From: a virus
Taxonomy: Duplodnaviria > Heunggongvirae > Uroviricota > Caudoviricetes
DNA: 13,771 nucleotides
Reading direction: 5' to 3' (one strand)
Virus record (IMG/VR): IMGVR_UViG_2778261544_000002
Positions 1 through 7,409 of this stretch are shown one piece after another (positions within the stretch are counted from its first letter, which is position 1; the number at the start of each line of letters is the position of its first letter). A model generated the notes under the pieces. That model was not told the DNA's origin, searched no databases, and worked only from the letters and a program-made list of their open reading frames with translations. A program made the translations under genes and the position numbers.

Positions 1-415
1 CTGCTCTTGTTGCGGCTGACGTTGCTTCTGTCTCGCTGGCTGCTGCTTTTGTTTCGCTCGCCTTTGCGTTAGTTTCACTGGTTTTTGCAGCTTTTTGGCT
101 ATTAGCTGCCGCTGTTGCAGAACCAGCTGCAGCACTCTCGCTTTCGGCTGCTGCATCCTGACTGCTTTTCGCCGCAGTTTCGCTGGCTTTGGCATTCGTT
201 TCGCTGGTCTTCGCTGCCGTCTGGCTGGACTTTGCGTTGGTTTCGCTCGTCTTTGCGGCTGTCTCGCTGTTTTTCGCGTTGGTTTCTGATTTTTTGGCTG
301 CTGTCGCGGAGTTTGCCGATGCAGTCTGTGAGGTCGCTGCCGCCTGTGCGCTGTTAGCTGCATTCGTTTCTGAGGTTTTCGCCGCGTTCTTCGATGATGC
401 CGCTGCAGTTTCGGA
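1..415 (-). repeat. In-frame degenerate 21-bp (7-residue) repeat array inside stf
   Basis: From about residue 131 of Stf the protein reads as successive heptads: SETAAAS SKNAAKT SETNAAN ... SETNAKN SETAAKT SETNAKS SQTAAKT SETNAKA SETAAKS. On the plus strand the motif gtttcgctgg recurs at 187 and 208, and gtttcgct at 250 (21-bp period). Boundaries are approximate. Confidence 0.7.
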
Positions 416-805
416 TTTCTTTGCCGCCGCTGCGCTCTGAGAGGCGGCTTCGGCGTTGCGTGCCGCTTCTTCCACCATTTCCTCAAAACGGCGCAATGCC
501 TCCGGCATGACATCATCTTCCGTCATGGCACCGAGAAAATCATTCAGCGTACCTGGTCTGGAACCTTCATAGACGGTAATGGTCCCGGCATGTGAAGGCG
601 GAAAACCTTCAACCAGCAGGGTGACGCTGTACTGGCCATACTCAACATCCATGCTGTAACGCCCGGCTTCATCAGGATTTTCAGAGGCCACCGTGTTCAC
701 CAGTACCGTGGTGCTGTTACGCTTTGCCTTCAGTTGAATAGTGCAGTTCTGTATTGGTTTTCCCGCACCATCTTTCAGCACACCTGAGATTTTTACTGCT
801 GCCAT
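1..805 (-). CDS. stf: Side tail fiber protein Stf, N-terminal part; 3' end of the gene lies beyond the window start
   Basis: ATG at 805..803 preceded by GGAG (minus strand TTTTGTGGAGTGGATATG). Translation MAAVKISGVLKDGAGKPIQNCTIQLKAKRNSTTVLVNTVASENPDEAGRYSMDVEYGQYSV... matches my recollection of the lambda Stf (orf-401) N-terminus, followed by an Ala/Ser/Thr-rich repeat region. Reading frame stays open to position 1 as far as I checked by hand. Not in the ORF track because no stop lies in the window. Confidence 0.85.
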   Translation of the reverse strand, partial: MAAVKISGVLKDGAGKPIQNCTIQLKAKRNSTTVLVNTVASENPDEAGRYSMDVEYGQYSVTLLVEGFPPSHAGTITVYEGSRPGTLNDFLGAMTEDDVMPEALRRFEEMVEEAARNAEAASQSAAAAKKSETAAASSKNAAKTSETNAANSAQAAATSQTASANSATAAKKSETNAKNSETAAKTSETNAKSSQTAAKTSETNAKASETAAKSSQDAAAESESAAAGSATAAANSQKAAKTSETNAKASETKAAASETEATSAATRA

Positions 806-869: not shown

Positions 870-1469
870 TCAGAATTTATAACCGACACCCACGATGAAA
901 CCGTCAGTGCGCCAGTCACCACTGCCGGAACCTTCATAAGCAAGGTCAATGGCCACGGATTCGGTCGGGTTAAACTGCACGCCAGCTCCCCACGCCAGAG
1001 ACGTGTTGCTGTGGCGACCGTCATCACTCCCGGTCAGCACATCGTGCGTTTTCCCCTTGTTGTCAGTTACGCGGAGATAATCCCCGGAGAACGTCGAAAC
1101 ACGGCTGTAAGCCACACCCGCCATCGCATAAGCACTGAACCATTCATTCACGCGTACAGACGGCCCCGCCATCACGCTGAACCAGCGGTTACGCACTGAA
1201 TCTTCATGCCAGCGGGTATCGCTGTAATGCGTTTTTTGCTCATCTTTGGCATTGGCATAACTGAATGACGTCACCAGCCCCAGCGTGTCCGTAAATTCAT
1301 AACGGTATTTCACGTTAATGCCCTTCAGGTCATCACTGCCTGGCATATCAGTATGGGTCTGAAGATACCCGGCGCTTAGTGTGGACTGATGCTCTGCTGC
1401 GCTCGCTGGCGTACCAGCGGCGACCAGCCAGACTACTGCAGACAGAATAACAGCACATAATTTACGCAT
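870..1469 (-). CDS. lom: Lom/Ail/PagC-family outer membrane beta-barrel protein
   Basis: 199-aa ORF, ATG at 1469..1467 with GAGAGG upstream. N-terminal signal peptide MRKLCAVILSAVVWLVAAGTPASA; C-terminus AYEGSGSGDWRTDGFIVGVGYKF is identical to lambda Lom as I recall it. Position directly downstream of J matches lambda. Confidence 0.9.
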   Translation of the reverse strand: MRKLCAVILSAVVWLVAAGTPASAAEHQSTLSAGYLQTHTDMPGSDDLKGINVKYRYEFTDTLGLVTSFSYANAKDEQKTHYSDTRWHEDSVRNRWFSVMAGPSVRVNEWFSAYAMAGVAYSRVSTFSGDYLRVTDNKGKTHDVLTGSDDGRHSNTSLAWGAGVQFNPTESVAIDLAYEGSGSGDWRTDGFIVGVGYKF

Positions 1470-1536: not shown

Positions 1537-4500
1537 TCAGCTAATCGTGATGCCTGCAGTGGCTTTCTTCATCACCACAACCAGCAAATCGCTGATACTT
1601 GCTGTGGGATACCAGCCATTTACCAGCCATGCCGATACAGAAAATTCCAGTGTCATGACACCACTGCCTGCAGGCATATCAATAACACCCGTATATATCA
1701 GCGTATTATCCAGAGCCGTTCGGTTATAAATTTCAGCACCGTTTTTTCGTACTATCAGACGGCATGAGGAGTAGATATCAGTATGATCTTGCTCATGTTT
1801 AGCGCCACTGAATGCCACCGCCGGGATAACAATTTGCCGGTCAAACGGCTGATCGTCATAAACCCTGACGGTAATGGTTCCTGATGGCCACCGCTCCGGT
1901 GCACGGGAGTCCCGGGGGAAAGCTTTGCCCACTGTTTTAACGAGATCGCCTTCAATCTGGTTCGCAGACAGTTTTCCCAGAACCCGGCAGTTCTCGTTAA
2001 TCGTGACGTTGTTGAGCGTCCCGGAGTTCGCATTCACGTTACCGCTGATATCGGCATTTTTCGCCGTCAGCCGCCCGTCCGGTGTCAGGGAAAATGCCGG
2101 AGGATTACCGCCGCTGGTAATGGTGGGAGCCGTCAGATATTTCAGGAACACTTCATTCATGTATATCTGATCGCCCTGCCCAACAAACATCGGCTTTGTG
2201 TTGCCATTCGCAGGATTAATCATCGCAATCCTGTCTGCCGCCAGCAGCACCTGACTCTGCATGCCGTCAGGGGTGTTTTCAATACCGGCACCAATACCCG
2301 CGATATAAAGGCGTCCGTCCTGCATCTGCTGCAGCTTCACAGCCCACATGCTGTTCAGGTTATTATTTGTATCAACCTGAACCTTCTGTATCTGCTGGAT
2401 CGCTGCACTCTGGTCTTCCAGTTTCTTATTGACGGTCTGCGTGATTTCATTACTGACATCCGTGATGGACGTTCTGATTTCCGCCAGGTCAGGCGCAAGC
2501 TGACCGTTATCAATCTGCGTCCACAACTCCTGAGCCAGATGGGTTTTCCCTATCTCTCCTTTGAAAAAATCCAGATAGCCGGATGCATCATCACTCGGCT
2601 GGCCAACAGCCTCCACGAATGCCGATTTGCCAACAGTATTCACACTGCGGATATAAAAATAATAATCATGGCCCGGCTTGATATTGATACTGGCAGCTAT
2701 CCAGTACAGCGCCGTGCCAAGATAGCGGGCTGTAGTTTCAACCTGCCTGATATCCGCAATCCGCTTTTCCAAGAACCAGAACTCAAACTGTACCGTCGGA
2801 TCATAAACGGCAAGATGGGGCGTGGCGGTTATCTGAAAATAGCCCGGCGTCAGCTCAATCCGCGACGGCGCTGCCGGTGCGGCAATCCGGAACGATACCG
2901 ATGCAGGATCGCCCTGCTGCCCCCAGGCATTTGCCGCCCGGACTGTCAGCCTGTAGCTTCCCAGCGCCAGCTGCCTGAAGCGGTATGTGGTTTCCGTCGT
3001 CCGGGCCGTGCTGACCAGCCGCTCACTGCCGTCATCCGCTGCCACGGTCAGGCGAAGCATAAAGCTCACACCCTTCACCACCTTCGGCGTATCCCAGCGC
3101 GCCAGCACCTGATATTCCCCGCTGTCTGCAGTGACTTCTGCGGTCAGGTGCTGCACCGCTGGCGTCGTGACACCATTCACCGTGCCACTCTGTTCGCCGT
3201 CAAAGTACGCCCCGTTATCCACGATGGCCTCTTTTTCCGGCACATGCTGCACGGCGGTGATGGCATACGTGCCGTCGTCGTTTTCACGGATACTCACGCA
3301 GCGGAACAGTCGCTGGCGCAGCGTCGGCAGCTTCAGCCCCCATACGCTGTATTCAGCAACACCGTCAGGAACACGACTCACTTTTACCTTCACGCCGTCG
3401 GTGACGGACTGAACCTCCACGCTGACCGGATTGCCACTTCCGTCAACCAGGCTTATCAGCGTGGTACCGGAGGATGGCAGCGTGATTTCACGGTCGAGCG
3501 TCAGCGTCCGGGTCTGGCTGTTCACCGCTAGCACACGACCACCGGTGCTGATACCGGCATAGTCATCATCACAGATTTCAATAACATCGCCCGGTACATG
3601 GCGAAGCCCTTCTGCGCCGACGCTGAAATCCACGGTCTGCGTTTCCAGCAGTTCCGTTTTAATCAGCCACAGCCCGGCGCGGTGTGCCTGCCCCCGGCTG
3701 GTACAGCCAAAGGCATCCATCTTCGTGACGTTACGACCGTAACGGAGAATAGCCTGCGTATCTTCAACAAGCTCTGTCGCCGTCTCCCAGCCGTTATTCG
3801 GGTCAATCCAGTTCACCTCAACGGCATTATGGCGGTCCTTCAGGGCGCTGAAGCTGTAGCGGAACGGCGCGCCATCATCCGGCATCACCACATTACTGCG
3901 GTTATAGGTCCACACCTTATCCGATGGCCGGTCCTGCACGAACGTCAGCGTCTGCCCGTTCCATACCGGCATACAGCGCATCGCCGAGCAGAAATCACTG
4001 AGCACATCCCACGCCTTACGCTGCGTGGTCAGGTAGGCATTACAGGTGATGCGCGGCTCCGTGCCGCCAAAACCGTCCGGCACTGACTGGTCGCAGTACT
4101 GGCCGATGACATACAGCGCCCATTTATCCACATCCGCCGCACCAAGACGTTTACCCATGCCGTAGCGCGGGTGGGTCAGCATATCCCACAGACACCAGGC
4201 CGGGTTGTTGCTGTATGCCGGCTTAAACGTTCCGTCCCAGATACCGCTGTATTGCCGCGTCTGCGGGTTATAGTTCGACGGCACCTGCAGAATGCGCCCG
4301 CGCAGATGATAATTACGGCTCACCTGCTGGCTGCCGAACTGCTCCGAGTCCACCTGCACGCCGACCAGTGCCGTGTTCGGGTAGCACTGTTTCACATCGA
4401 TAATTTCGGTGTATGACGACCAGAGCGTTTTGTTCTGCAGCTGGTCTGTAGTGCTGTCCGGCGTCATCCTGCGCATCCGGATACTGAACGGGCGCGGCGG

Positions 4501-5016
4501 CAGGTTACCCACCACCACCGAGGCCAGATACTGTGAGGTGGTTTTGCCTTTAATGGTGATGTCTTTTTCCGTCACCCAGCCACCGTTACGCTGTATCTGA
4601 ACCAGCAGGCGGACTTCCGATGGATTCCTGTCCCCCTTTGAGGTAGTTTCCACCAGTGCCTGCACACCGAAGGTAAAGCGCAGACGGTCGATGTTTGCCG
4701 ACGTGATGGTGCGGGTGATCGGCGTGTCATATTTCACTTCCGTACCCAGCACAGTCTCGGAGCCGGAGGATTCAAAACCTTCCGGCGGTGTCTGCTCCTG
4801 CTCACCTGCCCGGAACACCACCGTGACGCCGGAGATGTTGGTATTCCCCTCACTGTCCAGCACCGGCGTACTGTTCAGCAGCACGCTTTTTAATCCATCC
4901 ACCGGACCTTCAACCGGCCCTTCGCTGATGGCATCGATCACACTCAGCAACTGCGTGGACTTCAGGTTGTCCTTCGCTTCGCGCGGGGTATGCCCCTTAC
5001 TGCTTCCTTTACCCAT
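1537..5016 (-). CDS. J: Tail tip / host specificity protein J (central tail fiber)
   Basis: 1159-aa ORF, ATG at 5016..5014 preceded by GAGGA. N-terminus [34 protein letters not shown]... and roughly the first 800 residues are near-identical to lambda J as I recall it; the C-terminal third is homologous but diverged and about 27 residues longer. Confidence 0.95.
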
Positions 5017-5038
5017 TCCTCACGCTCCATAAATGACA

Positions 5039-5058
5039 AAACCGCCCGCAGGCGGTTT
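5039..5058 (-). other. Intergenic stem-loop between I and J
   Basis: 8-bp stem (plus 5039..5046 aaaccgcc pairing with 5051..5058 ggcggttt) with a 4-nt loop in the 59-nt I-J spacer. On the minus transcript it is followed by UGUCAUUUAU, which is only moderately U-rich, so function as a terminator is uncertain. Confidence 0.45.
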
Positions 5059-5076
5059 CACATAAAACATTTTGCA

Positions 5077-5724
5077 TCAGCGACCAATCACCACAACCTG
5101 ACCACCGTCCCCTTCGTCTGCCGTGCTGATCTCCTGAGAAACCACACGTGATCCCACGCGCATTTCACCGTACAGAACAGGCAAAACATTGCCCTGGGCA
5201 ACCATGTTATCCAGTGACGAGAAATACGTGTTCTGCTTACCGTTATCCGTACTGGTCGCTGTGGGCGTCCGGGCTTTCGGTGCCAGCATCTGCGCCACTC
5301 CGCCCAGGATCATACTGGCCCCTGCTGCATACATACCCGATACAGCCGCGGCCCCCAGCCAGCCCACAGGGTTCCACCATGCCACCGCAATCAGCGCCGC
5401 ACCCAGCACTGCCTGAAAAACACCGCCACTTTTAGCTCCCGCCAGACGCGGCACAATGTGGATCACGGCACCATTTGCCAGCGGCTCATTAAGACGGGCA
5501 GATAATTCATTTTCGCCTGCATCACGCCCGGCAATGCGTACCTGGTACCAGCCGTCGCTCAGTTTCTGACGAAACGCCGGGATCTGCATGGCCAGCGCCC
5601 GGATGGCTTCGGCTCCCGTTTTCACACGAAGGTCGATGCGGCGGCCAAATCGTTGTAAATCCCCGTAAAGGCAGATGCGTGCCATGCCCGGTGACGCCAG
5701 AGGGAGTGTGTGCGTCGCTGCCAT
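5077..5724 (-). CDS. I: Tail assembly protein I (ubiquitin-like N-terminal domain)
   Basis: 215-aa ORF, ATG at 5724..5722. N-terminus MAATHTLPLASPGMARICLYGDLQRFGRRIDLRVKTGAEAIRAL and C-terminus VAQGNVLPVLYGEMRVGSRVVSQEISTADEGDGGQVVVIGR match lambda I as I recall it. Overlaps the 3' end of K by 103 nt in another frame, as in lambda. Confidence 0.9.
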   Translation of the reverse strand: MAATHTLPLASPGMARICLYGDLQRFGRRIDLRVKTGAEAIRALAMQIPAFRQKLSDGWYQVRIAGRDAGENELSARLNEPLANGAVIHIVPRLAGAKSGGVFQAVLGAALIAVAWWNPVGWLGAAAVSGMYAAGASMILGGVAQMLAPKARTPTATSTDNGKQNTYFSSLDNMVAQGNVLPVLYGEMRVGSRVVSQEISTADEGDGGQVVVIGR

Positions 5725-6365
5725 TTGTCTGTATACCTCTCTCGTTTGCTCAGTTGTTCAGGAATATGGTGCAACAGCTCGCCGTCGCCACAGTAAATGG
5801 CGGCATGATTCGGCACCGATGAACCAAAACAGCACAGCAGCACATCGCCCGGCTGCGCCGCTGACAACGGCACCTGATACAGCCCTGTGGCCTCCAGATT
5901 ATCCAGATAGAGATTCTGACCGTTACGCCACCAGTCATCCTCGCGGTGAAAATCCGGCATCTCAATCCCAGCCAGATGGTAAGCATCCCGGAACAGCGTG
6001 TAACAGTCTGTCACCCCGTGCTCAAAGCGCCGTCCGGTAAGATGCGGCACACAGCGGAACTTGTGAATCGCTCCCCGACAGACCAGCCACCACGGCAAAT
6101 CACTCTGCACCTGCAGCCGCCGGTCGGCTTCACTCAGCCAGGGCAGACCACCGGGATGACTGTGGACCAGCGCGACAATCTCACCCTGCATTTCTGCCTG
6201 CAGCCAGTCCTCCGGAGCCATCCGGAAATAATCCTCCGGCTCACCGGAAATATTCACGCAGGGAAAATATCTTTCCCCCTCCGGCGCTCTCACCACGAAG
6301 CCGCACGACTCCGCTGGCGCACATCGCCGGGCGTGCGCCAGAATCGCTGATTCTGTCTCTGTCAT
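5622..6365 (-). CDS. K: Tail tip assembly protein K (JAB/MPN metalloprotease-like domain plus NlpC/P60 domain)
   Basis: Start chosen at ATG 6365..6363 (MTETESAILAHARRC..., 247 aa), 4 nt after the L stop. JAMM-type motif HSHPGGLPWLSEAD (HxH-x7-S-x2-D) and an NlpC/P60-like Cys/His set (GVTDCYTLF, NHAAIY, LLHHIP) are read directly. Alternatives: internal ATG at 6221..6219 (MAPEDW..., 199 aa) with GGAGGA 10 nt upstream; the ORF-track start at 6440 overlaps L by 70 nt and is rejected. Confidence 0.75.
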   Translation of the reverse strand: MTETESAILAHARRCAPAESCGFVVRAPEGERYFPCVNISGEPEDYFRMAPEDWLQAEMQGEIVALVHSHPGGLPWLSEADRRLQVQSDLPWWLVCRGAIHKFRCVPHLTGRRFEHGVTDCYTLFRDAYHLAGIEMPDFHREDDWWRNGQNLYLDNLEATGLYQVPLSAAQPGDVLLCCFGSSVPNHAAIYCGDGELLHHIPEQLSKRERYTDKWQRRTHSLWRHRAWHASAFTGIYNDLAAASTFV

Positions 6366-6369
6366 GGGA

Positions 6370-7068
6370 TTACTGCGAAAGTTTGTTAATGGAAAGGTAG
6401 CCGCCAAAATTGCCGACGTTATTGCGGAACTTGCAACCACTCAGGCATTTGCTGCATTTATCCTTCGTGATATCGGACGTTGGCTGGTCATATTCATCCG
6501 CGACAGCCGGGCCATCATAACCGCACTCATCGCCGCGGTAGATCCAGGTGCAGGTGTTGGCCAGCATGATGCGCCCCGGAAAAACAGCGCCATCCGTTTC
6601 CGTCGGTGTGGACAGCACAAAAGAGGCACTGACCGCGCTCAGTTCGCTGCACTGTTCGATGCGCCAGCGGCTGATCACCTCCTGCTCCGGATCGGCGTCA
6701 CTGTTTCCGTTGACGAAGTTCACCGCATCCAGAAAACGGGCGTAAACCTTACGCCGGACCACCGTTCCGCCGACCAGACTCTGCAGATCTTCCGCCATCC
6801 CGGTGACCATGCCGTACAGATTAGAGACTTTAAGCGTTGGCCTTGCACTGGCTCCTTTGCCGTTCATCTCAAATCCGCTTCCCTGAATGGGATAAGCCTG
6901 ATACTGCCGCCCCTGCCAGGTGACTGGTTCACCTTTTTCGTTCTGCTCATTACAGAAGAAATAACGATCTCCGCCGACCTCTGTCAGATCAATTTCCCAG
7001 AGCACGACCAGCGCGGATTGCTCCGTTTTAGTGCACTCATTGAGTGTTTCCTGCTGTATATCCTGCAT
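6370..7068 (-). CDS. L: Tail tip assembly protein L
   Basis: 232-aa ORF, ATG at 7068..7066 sharing one base with the M stop (TGATG). Same length as lambda L; Cys-rich C-terminal region (CGYDG ... CSKCLSGC) consistent with the metal/cluster-binding region described for lambda L. Confidence 0.9.
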   Translation of the reverse strand: MQDIQQETLNECTKTEQSALVVLWEIDLTEVGGDRYFFCNEQNEKGEPVTWQGRQYQAYPIQGSGFEMNGKGASARPTLKVSNLYGMVTGMAEDLQSLVGGTVVRRKVYARFLDAVNFVNGNSDADPEQEVISRWRIEQCSELSAVSASFVLSTPTETDGAVFPGRIMLANTCTWIYRGDECGYDGPAVADEYDQPTSDITKDKCSKCLSGCKFRNNVGNFGGYLSINKLSQ

Positions 7069-7409
7069 CAGTGAGTGACCTCTTCAAAGGTACAGTTAAA
7101 ATCGGTATACATGGCATTATCCGAAATGCTCCACTCCCTGCAGACAACCCGGACAGTCCTGTTGTGTTTTGGCGGACGCCACAAAAAAGCACGAATCCCG
7201 GCATGACGGGATAAAAAACTGTCCAGCGCGGCACGGGAATATTCATCTGTGACACGAAATACCGGTTTAAACGTTTTCAGATCCGCATTCAGACCACCAG
7301 CCCGTCGCTGTTCATATCCGTCACCAAACTTTACCGTAATAACTGATGGCTTTCGTGTCGTCTCCATCCCCTCTCGGGGGATCCAGTTAAAAACTTCAGG
7401 CTCAGGCAC
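7068..7409 (-). CDS. M: Minor tail protein M
   Basis: Conserved FGDGYEQR core and an FNW...GME N-terminal segment align with lambda M as I recall it. Start most likely GTG at 7409..7407 (113 aa), with GGAGGA 7 nt upstream and overlapping the H stop; alternative ATG at 7424..7422 has no Shine-Dalgarno. The ORF-track start at 7454 is a TTG. Confidence 0.7.
   Translation of the reverse strand: MPEPEVFNWIPREGMETTRKPSVITVKFGDGYEQRRAGGLNADLKTFKPVFRVTDEYSRAALDSFLSRHAGIRAFLWRPPKHNRTVRVVCREWSISDNAMYTDFNCTFEEVTH

Follow-up and report, generated by a model that had tools for sequence, protein, structure and literature searches.

The window, a 13,771-nt stretch of DNA from a Caudoviricetes virus record (IMG/VR IMGVR_UViG_2778261544_000002), is the tail-tip region of a lambdoid E. 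coli prophage. Its genes stand in the lambda order, M-L-K-I-J-lom-stf, as judged from Pfam matches to M, L, K (JAB and NlpC/P60), I, Lom and the N-terminus of Stf. The gene for the tail tip attachment (host specificity) protein, J, occupies positions 1537..5016 on the minus strand and is an intact ORF of 3480 nt, encoding 1159 aa according to the ORF list and its translation. The same strand also carries, upstream of J, homologues of I, K, L and M, the tape measure protein and the tail chaperones. Directly downstream is a homologue of lom (870..1469, minus strand), specifying an Ail/Lom outer-membrane protein of 199 aa that matches Pfam Ail_Lom over its full length (E = 1.3e-128); the succession of J and lom is that of lambda, PhiR46_1, Sakai and phi330. 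The side tail fibre gene (1..805, minus strand) is represented by the N-terminal 268 aa of Stf (by translation; Pfam phage_tail_N, E = 8e-68), and ends at the window edge. In such phages, Stf is the second determinant of host range. From L into J the DNA is collinear with that of lambda; M and the genes further upstream are not lambda-like, and the lambda-like DNA (92% identity) runs from the start of L to approximately J aa 830 (2520-7088) and ends there. The entire window matches many E. coli chromosomes at ~97.7%.

Membership of J in the gpJ family is established by its domains: six J-specific Pfam families score above their curated cut-offs, in the correct order, comprising FNIII-A_GpJ (aa 86-207), Phage-tail_3 (aa 330-498), Ig_J (aa 610-714), Ig_J_second (aa 716-818), Phage_Tail_Tip (aa 872-1000) and Ig_GpJ_C (aa 1029-1159). 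BLASTP aligns the protein with lambda J over its full length at 1966 bits, and the exact sequence is already in RefSeq as WP_089639667.1, within a 90%-identity cluster of 34,633 sequences. Because the hub region is 97% identical to that of lambda J, for which structures have been solved (PMC11101478), J is predicted to form, as a trimer, the central fibre of a siphovirus tail and to trigger DNA ejection upon receptor binding.

When J is aligned with lambda J (from J02459; 1132 aa), aa 1-820 are identical at 797 of 820 positions (97.2%) with no gaps, which upholds the impression of the first-pass annotation that the first ~800 residues are near-identical. The span singled out in that annotation, 1537..2556, is the 3' end of the ORF, encoding J aa 821-1159 and the stop codon. 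The helical segment following the motif GYLDFFKG, which ends at aa 820, had been described as different and about 27 residues longer, and so it is: across aa 821-890 a mere 13 of 42 alignable residues match and 28 residues are additional, one lambda-only residue further on bringing the net difference to +27 (1159 vs 1132 aa). Identity to lambda recovers to 73.9% over aa 891-1001 and is 42.4% over the last 158 residues (aa 1002-1159). Heavy substitution at the C-terminal end was therefore correctly perceived, but not its extent: it had been placed in the last ~130 residues after PFDRQIV (aa 1057-1063), a motif that is followed by only 96 residues (32.3% identical to lambda J); strong divergence sets in at ~aa 1002 and affects ~158 residues.

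This pattern of divergence is far beyond chance, and its block boundaries are sharp at the level of DNA, where J was compared with its counterparts in lambda, 434B, phage 21, PhiR46_1, VT1-Sakai (Sp15 of E. coli O157:H7) and phi330 by a 90-nt sliding comparison. The comparison identifies the divergence as mosaicism, that is, modular recombination rather than gradual divergence. The hub domains and two FNIII/Ig domains (aa 1-820; 2557..5016, minus strand) constitute a lambda-type module: DNA identity over J nt 1-2430 is ~96% to lambda, 434B and PhiR46_1, ~95% to phage 21 and 77% to VT1-Sakai. The variable part of the alpha-helical shaft (AHS; aa 821-890; 2347..2556, minus strand) is of the phage-21 type, with 97.6% identity to phage 21, 98.6% to PhiR46_1, 91.9% to Sakai and 32% to lambda and 434B (nt 2461-2670). 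The beta-prism central straight fibre (CSF; aa 891-960; 2137..2346, minus strand), which lies within the Phage_Tail_Tip match and is moderately diverged from lambda, has 93-100% DNA identity to phage 21 and PhiR46_1. It is succeeded by a 41-residue linker (aa 961-1001; 2014..2136, minus strand) that is kept in all classes of receptor-binding domain (RBD); over nt 2881-3003 its DNA is 100% identical in Sakai and PhiR46_1, 89% in lambda, 87% in phage 21, 84% in 434B and 81% in phi330. The remainder of the protein is the Ig-like RBD (aa 1002-1159; 1540..2013, minus strand), which contains the Ig_GpJ_C match, belongs to the VT1-Sakai / 1A2 / PhiR46_1 allele class and is predicted to bind OmpC; its DNA (nt 3061-3480) is 98% identical to PhiR46_1, 93% to Sakai and 47-59% to all the others. 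Diverged blocks flank the linker in lambda, 434B and phage 21, and aa 961-1001 are a likely recombination junction, a natural crossover site for the swapping of RBDs.

The helical segment of the first-pass annotation is the AHS, which in lambda spans aa 809-861 and which cryo-EM of lambda has defined as a trimeric bundle of helices, flipping and partly refolding upon receptor binding (PMC11101478). The 28 extra residues amount to four heptads and are common to phage 21, PhiR46_1, Sakai and phi330. The possibility that the longer shaft is an unusual insertion was considered and rejected: among 5426 complete E. coli genomes, the long form is found in 3553 (at 6980 places) and the short lambda form in 2571 (3859 places). 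The long shaft is thus the commoner allele rather than an oddity, a frequent variant in length that is not known to affect specificity.

The RBD falls into a discrete class. A tblastn search of 50,697 phage records with the last 160 aa of J returned 52 records at 95-99% identity (including PhiR46_1, PPompW prophages, VT1-Sakai, Stx2a_WGPS2 and JLK-2012), 81 at 60-80% (including phage 21 and BP-4795-like phages) and 105 below 60% (including lambda and 434). Taking ~>=95% amino acid identity across the last ~160 residues as the mark of the VT1-Sakai / 1A2 class, J belongs to it, at 97% identity to reconstructed 1A2, 97% to PhiR46_1 and 96% to VT1-Sakai. It falls outside the lambda-type LamB-binding class (42% in protein over aa 1002-1159, 50% in DNA), outside the class of phage 21, whose native receptor is LamB (66% in protein, 57% in DNA, despite the 98% identical shaft), and outside the OmpC-binding class of A8 and phi330 (63% and 64%, respectively), in which the first hairpin is 5 residues longer than in J; identity to 434 is 45%. 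The A8 and phi330 RBDs are 99% identical to each other. The best match to J in the PDB is 9wca, 'A8 gpJ 713'; a literature search yielded no paper accompanying 9wca/9wcb. A bioRxiv study of receptor prediction covers the GpJ of Drexlerviridae and explicitly leaves out the lambda C-terminal domain (10.64898/2026.04.02.716166).

The functionally characterised member of the class is 'gpJ 1A2', an engineered chimera (Brödel et al., Nature 2024; Eligo) that has the short lambda shaft (PMC11338833). Lambda-1A2 particles require plasmid-borne OmpC for delivery into delta-lamB delta-ompC cells, and 1A2 works with the EDL933 variant of OmpC but not with that of K-12 MG1655; together, 1A2 and A8 cover 21 of 23 natural OmpC variants (PMC11338833; restated in 10.1101/2025.02.28.640725). 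The main text and Fig. 1b were relied on here, with which the source data for Extended Data Fig. 2c conflict, the 1A2 values being those of panel b. The 1A2 C-terminus was taken as DNA from Supplementary file 1 part 7 of PMC11338833, a machine-read PDF text with many single-base errors, from which ~172 of the last 177 residues were recovered directly across reading frames; seven residues were filled from Sakai, and the position corresponding to aa 1109 is ambiguous. The recovered residues match the VT1-Sakai sequence. Past lambda aa 964, nearly every codon of 1A2 differs from that of J at its third position while the protein is unchanged. The 1A2 insert looks recoded, and this, together with the reading errors, renders a DNA comparison uninformative, so that 1A2 was compared as protein in a frame-tolerant manner.

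Since its RBD is 97% identical to a domain that is OmpC-dependent in a lamB-deleted host, OmpC is the most likely receptor of this J allele. The first-pass annotation had proposed a different receptor or a LamB variant and had called for alignment against J homologues of known receptor specificity. That alignment (42% and 66% to the LamB binders lambda and phage 21, 97% to OmpC-dependent 1A2) places the RBD in a distinct allele class and makes the first of the two suggestions, in the form of OmpC, the well-supported reading. Use of OmpC is not peculiar to 1A2. Three further RBD classes of J are reported to do so: A8, which accepts OmpC of K-12 as well (PMC11338833); phi330, from the Keio ompC knockout and its complementation (PMC12502783); and 434 (PMC3509688, which also gives LamB as the receptor of lambda). 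Nevertheless, sequence identity alone is no proof of receptor: phage 21, a native LamB user, gains use of OmpC by a single RBD mutation (PMC11336670), and the RBDs of A8, an OmpC user, and phage 21 are 82% identical.

Exchange of C-terminal modules of J, together with a switch of receptor, is textbook lambdoid biology, and the composite that emerges for the J of this prophage is an intact lambda-family tail tip protein built of at least three exchangeable blocks. Its docking on OmpC rather than LamB, which extrapolates from 1A2, we regard as quite probable. Block 1 (aa 1-820) supplies the lambda-type hub and FNIII region, fitting the adjoining lambda-like L, K and I; block 2 is the phage-21-type long alpha-helical shaft with its beta-prism fibre; block 3 is the VT1-Sakai/1A2-type Ig-like RBD, joined through the universally conserved 41-residue linker. 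In lambda, the RBD enters LamB by four distal loops (PMC11101478). In J, the distal loops of the RBD trimer would dock in the OmpC trimer instead, as the 97%-identical domain of 1A2 does, and the ensuing relay would be that of lambda, from which mechanism and domain names are taken (PMC11101478): the base of the RBD would open, the fibre twist, the helical shaft flip and the FNIII strings dissociate, whereupon the tube would open.

The RBD loops of J are not identical to those of 1A2. Five substitutions in three loops separate J from both 1A2 and Sakai (Q1076K, D1077E, S1118H, V1120H and G1134N, the residue of J being given first), with T1109S additionally in Sakai; variable loops hold all of them. 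The first loop, aa 1074-1080 (HEQDHTD; 1777..1797, minus strand), has Q1076 and D1077 against K and E in 1A2 and Sakai; its counterpart in the alignment is the phi330 hairpin E953-S962 (ENFNSNNQQS), which is 5 residues longer and which an AlphaFold3 model predicts to point into the OmpC barrel (PMC12502783). The second, aa 1116-1121 (AGSGVM; 1654..1671, minus strand), has S1118 and V1120, both of which are H in 1A2 and Sakai; this PAGxGx motif varies in every class (AGRGNV in lambda, AGHGHV in phage 21, AGQGTL in A8). The third, aa 1130-1137 (WLVNGWYP; 1606..1629, minus strand), has G1134 for N and aligns with the phi330 hairpin A1015-P1020, predicted in the same model to contact the OmpC barrel at its rim (PMC12502783). 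These contacts come from a published AlphaFold3 model of another class, the equivalences being drawn by alignment of phi330 residue numbers; an AlphaFold2 prediction of J aa 990-1159 from the single sequence had a mean pLDDT of 56.7, too poor to place the substitutions.

The five substitutions are probably a within-class polymorphism that tunes which OmpC variants are recognised. Since all five lie in variable loops, 97% identity to 1A2 guarantees neither the receptor nor the range of OmpC variants, and since two of the three substituted loops match predicted porin-contact hairpins, that range may differ from the range of 1A2; what the loop differences diminish is confidence in a shared OmpC-variant range, not in a shared class. 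PhiR46_1 has the same residues as J at all five positions. It is conceivable, if rather doubtful, that the sub-allele common to the two (HEQDHT / AGSGVM / VNGWYP) recognises other natural OmpC variants than the HEKEHT / AGHGHM / VNNWYP form of 1A2 and Sakai. Such a shift might, for example, gain OmpC of the K-12 type or add a second porin. If the notion is correct, a few loop residues would amount to a natural code of specificity, one that can be read to match lambdoid J tips with OmpC alleles.

The same loops provide the case for another proposition, that the substitutions have shifted this sub-allele to another porin or outer-membrane protein, such as OmpF, or to the binding of multiple receptors. 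Every difference from 1A2 falls in a variable loop, and two of these loops correspond in the alignment to hairpins predicted to make contact; one to a few RBD mutations bring evolved phage 21 and lambda to OmpC or OmpF (PMC11336670); and the J protein of Gifsy-1 binds OmpC, OmpX and BtuB (PMC12312913). However, 1A2 has the same framework and most of the same loop residues, and the 17 synonymous and 6 non-synonymous codon differences that separate the RBD from that of Sakai look like ordinary within-class polymorphism. The sub-allele is also common, being present at >=99% DNA identity in 111 genome records as well as in an isolated phage, PhiR46_1. On balance, a shift to another receptor is unlikely.

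A quite improbable reading is that LamB, perhaps in a variant form with whose surface loops the RBD has coevolved, is still the receptor. It draws on phage 21, which shares the long shaft and is 66% identical in its RBD while using LamB natively (PMC11336670), and on the fact, already noted for A8 and phage 21, that overall similarity does not part LamB users from OmpC users. The far closer relative, 1A2, nonetheless functions in lamB-deleted cells and requires OmpC there, and identity to the two known LamB binders, lambda and phage 21, is only 42% and 66%, respectively. Least credible, and very improbable, is the suggestion that J belongs to a defective prophage remnant whose receptor specificity is without present function: the window is a 13.8-kb contig with tail genes only and numerous J copies of the class are broken (a mutation splits J in the VT1-Sakai annotation, and many database members are partial), but every neighbouring tail gene in the window, like J itself, is an intact ORF that Pfam matches over its full length, and the plaque-forming PhiR46_1 has a J gene that is 96.5% identical in DNA.

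With OmpC retained as the most likely receptor, the relationships of J to its named counterparts can be set out in terms of blocks. Lambda gpJ (P03749; PDB 8IYK, 8XCJ, 8XCK) resembles J in length class, gene order, complete domain architecture and linker, and presumably shares its receptor-triggered opening mechanism; it differs in having 28 residues fewer in the shaft, ~40 unalignable residues and the diverged RBD, with LamB as its receptor in place of the OmpC predicted for J. Phage 21 J (OL657228) shares the lambda-like N-terminal module and the long shaft (98% in DNA) but has an RBD of a different class. Phage 434 J (OL657227) likewise has the lambda-like N-terminal module, and OmpC as receptor, but its shaft is of the short lambda type and its RBD class is unrelated. 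A8 gpJ (PDB 9wca/9wcb) and phi330 J (PV189401) have Ig-like RBDs with experimental OmpC dependence and framework motifs in common with J, yet form a separate class, with A8 accepting the K-12 OmpC that 1A2 does not. The RBDs of 1A2 and VT1-Sakai are of the same allele class as that of J over aa 1002-1159, 1A2 being experimentally OmpC-dependent and LamB-independent; the VT1-Sakai protein, however, is of another type in its N-terminal 800 aa, and its gene is frameshifted.

The closest full-length relative among deposited phages is the J of PhiR46_1 (PV340565), an ECOR-derived temperate phage plated on ECOR13, whose gene has the same three blocks and 96.5% DNA identity along its entire length. 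Its RBD differs from that of J by four conservative replacements (E1008Q, V1012I, L1025I and T1157S). The paper on SNIPE, in which the PhiR phages were used, reports ManYZ dependence and not outer-membrane receptors, and in the literature examined no report of the PhiR46_1 receptor was found. The tape measure genes are dissimilar: that of PhiR46_1 is lambda-sized (2562 nt, 853 codons), and the window has a 1077-aa protein of the HK97 type.

Both J and its type of RBD are already known, the type being a common one in E. coli prophages and a near-identical domain having been functionally characterised. RBD DNA of at least 80% identity is present in 3378 of the 5426 complete E. coli genomes. When the last 360 aa were searched against a protein database, at least 120 matches were returned; those listed are all >=95% identical, and many entries are at 100%. 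J is accordingly a clean example of the swapping of receptor-binding tips by lambdoid prophages at a conserved linker, of little import beyond annotation. What it does offer is that a lambda-looking J can be assigned to a likely receptor, OmpC, by way of the engineered gpJ variants that are now used for DNA delivery, and that its natural five-residue loop difference from 1A2 is a modest lead on a possible determinant of OmpC-variant recognition, which would be of help in predicting host range and in designing lambda-based delivery particles. Three features of the locus go beyond the first-pass annotation: the modular recombination in J, the standing of the long shaft as the commoner form in E. 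coli prophages, and the occurrence of the allele in databases and in the isolated phage PhiR46_1.

Overall identity is no guide to the receptor class of a J-family receptor-binding domain (RBD) except where it is very high, because the RBDs of the OmpC-binding A8 (PDB 9wca) and phi330 J proteins are 81-82% identical to that of phage 21, whose native receptor is LamB, and because a single mutation suffices for phage 21 to use OmpC (PMC11336670). In VT1-Sakai, the Stx1 prophage of O157 Sakai, the J gene (AP000400, 1548..5020) specifies the RBD class nearest to the characterised 1A2, an engineered, OmpC-dependent gpJ chimera. The annotation divides this gene into two overlapping CDSs, "truncated by a mutation"; J of the window is intact.

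The likeness to lambda is confined to window 2520-7088, which spans L through the N-terminal part of J only, at 92% DNA identity, and it ends at the M/L junction, near 7088. M and the genes upstream of it in the window are similar to those of phi330 at 71-75%. The 1077-residue tape measure protein (7402..10635, minus strand; Pfam Phage_HK97_TLTM, TMP_3 and Tape_meas_lam_C) is of the HK97 type and not of the type of lambda H, which has 853 residues. For lambda-like phages, a recent paper connects tape-measure clades with dependence on ManYZ and with sensitivity to the SNIPE defence (PMC13190303).

Immediately downstream of J, as in lambda, lies a full-length, 199-residue homologue of the Ail/Lom outer-membrane proteins (870..1469, minus strand; Pfam Ail_Lom, E = 1e-128). 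The other host-range determinant beside J is the receptor-binding end of the side tail fibre, Stf; stf extends past the end of the window, which therefore holds only its N-terminus (1..805, minus strand), starting with a "prophage tail fibre N-terminal" domain. An Ala/Ser/Thr/Lys-rich repetitive tract follows that domain (1..480, minus strand; it includes ..AKTSETNAKSSQTAAKTSETNAKASETAAKSS..), with periods of 21 and 42 nt (TRF) and a strongly negative AT skew (-0.65). Between lom and stf (~806-869), an inverted repeat rich in GC precedes a run of T residues on the coding strand (the plus-strand sequence reads AAAAAAGCCCGCCTGAACCGGCGGGCTGT); by eye, this looks like a terminator.
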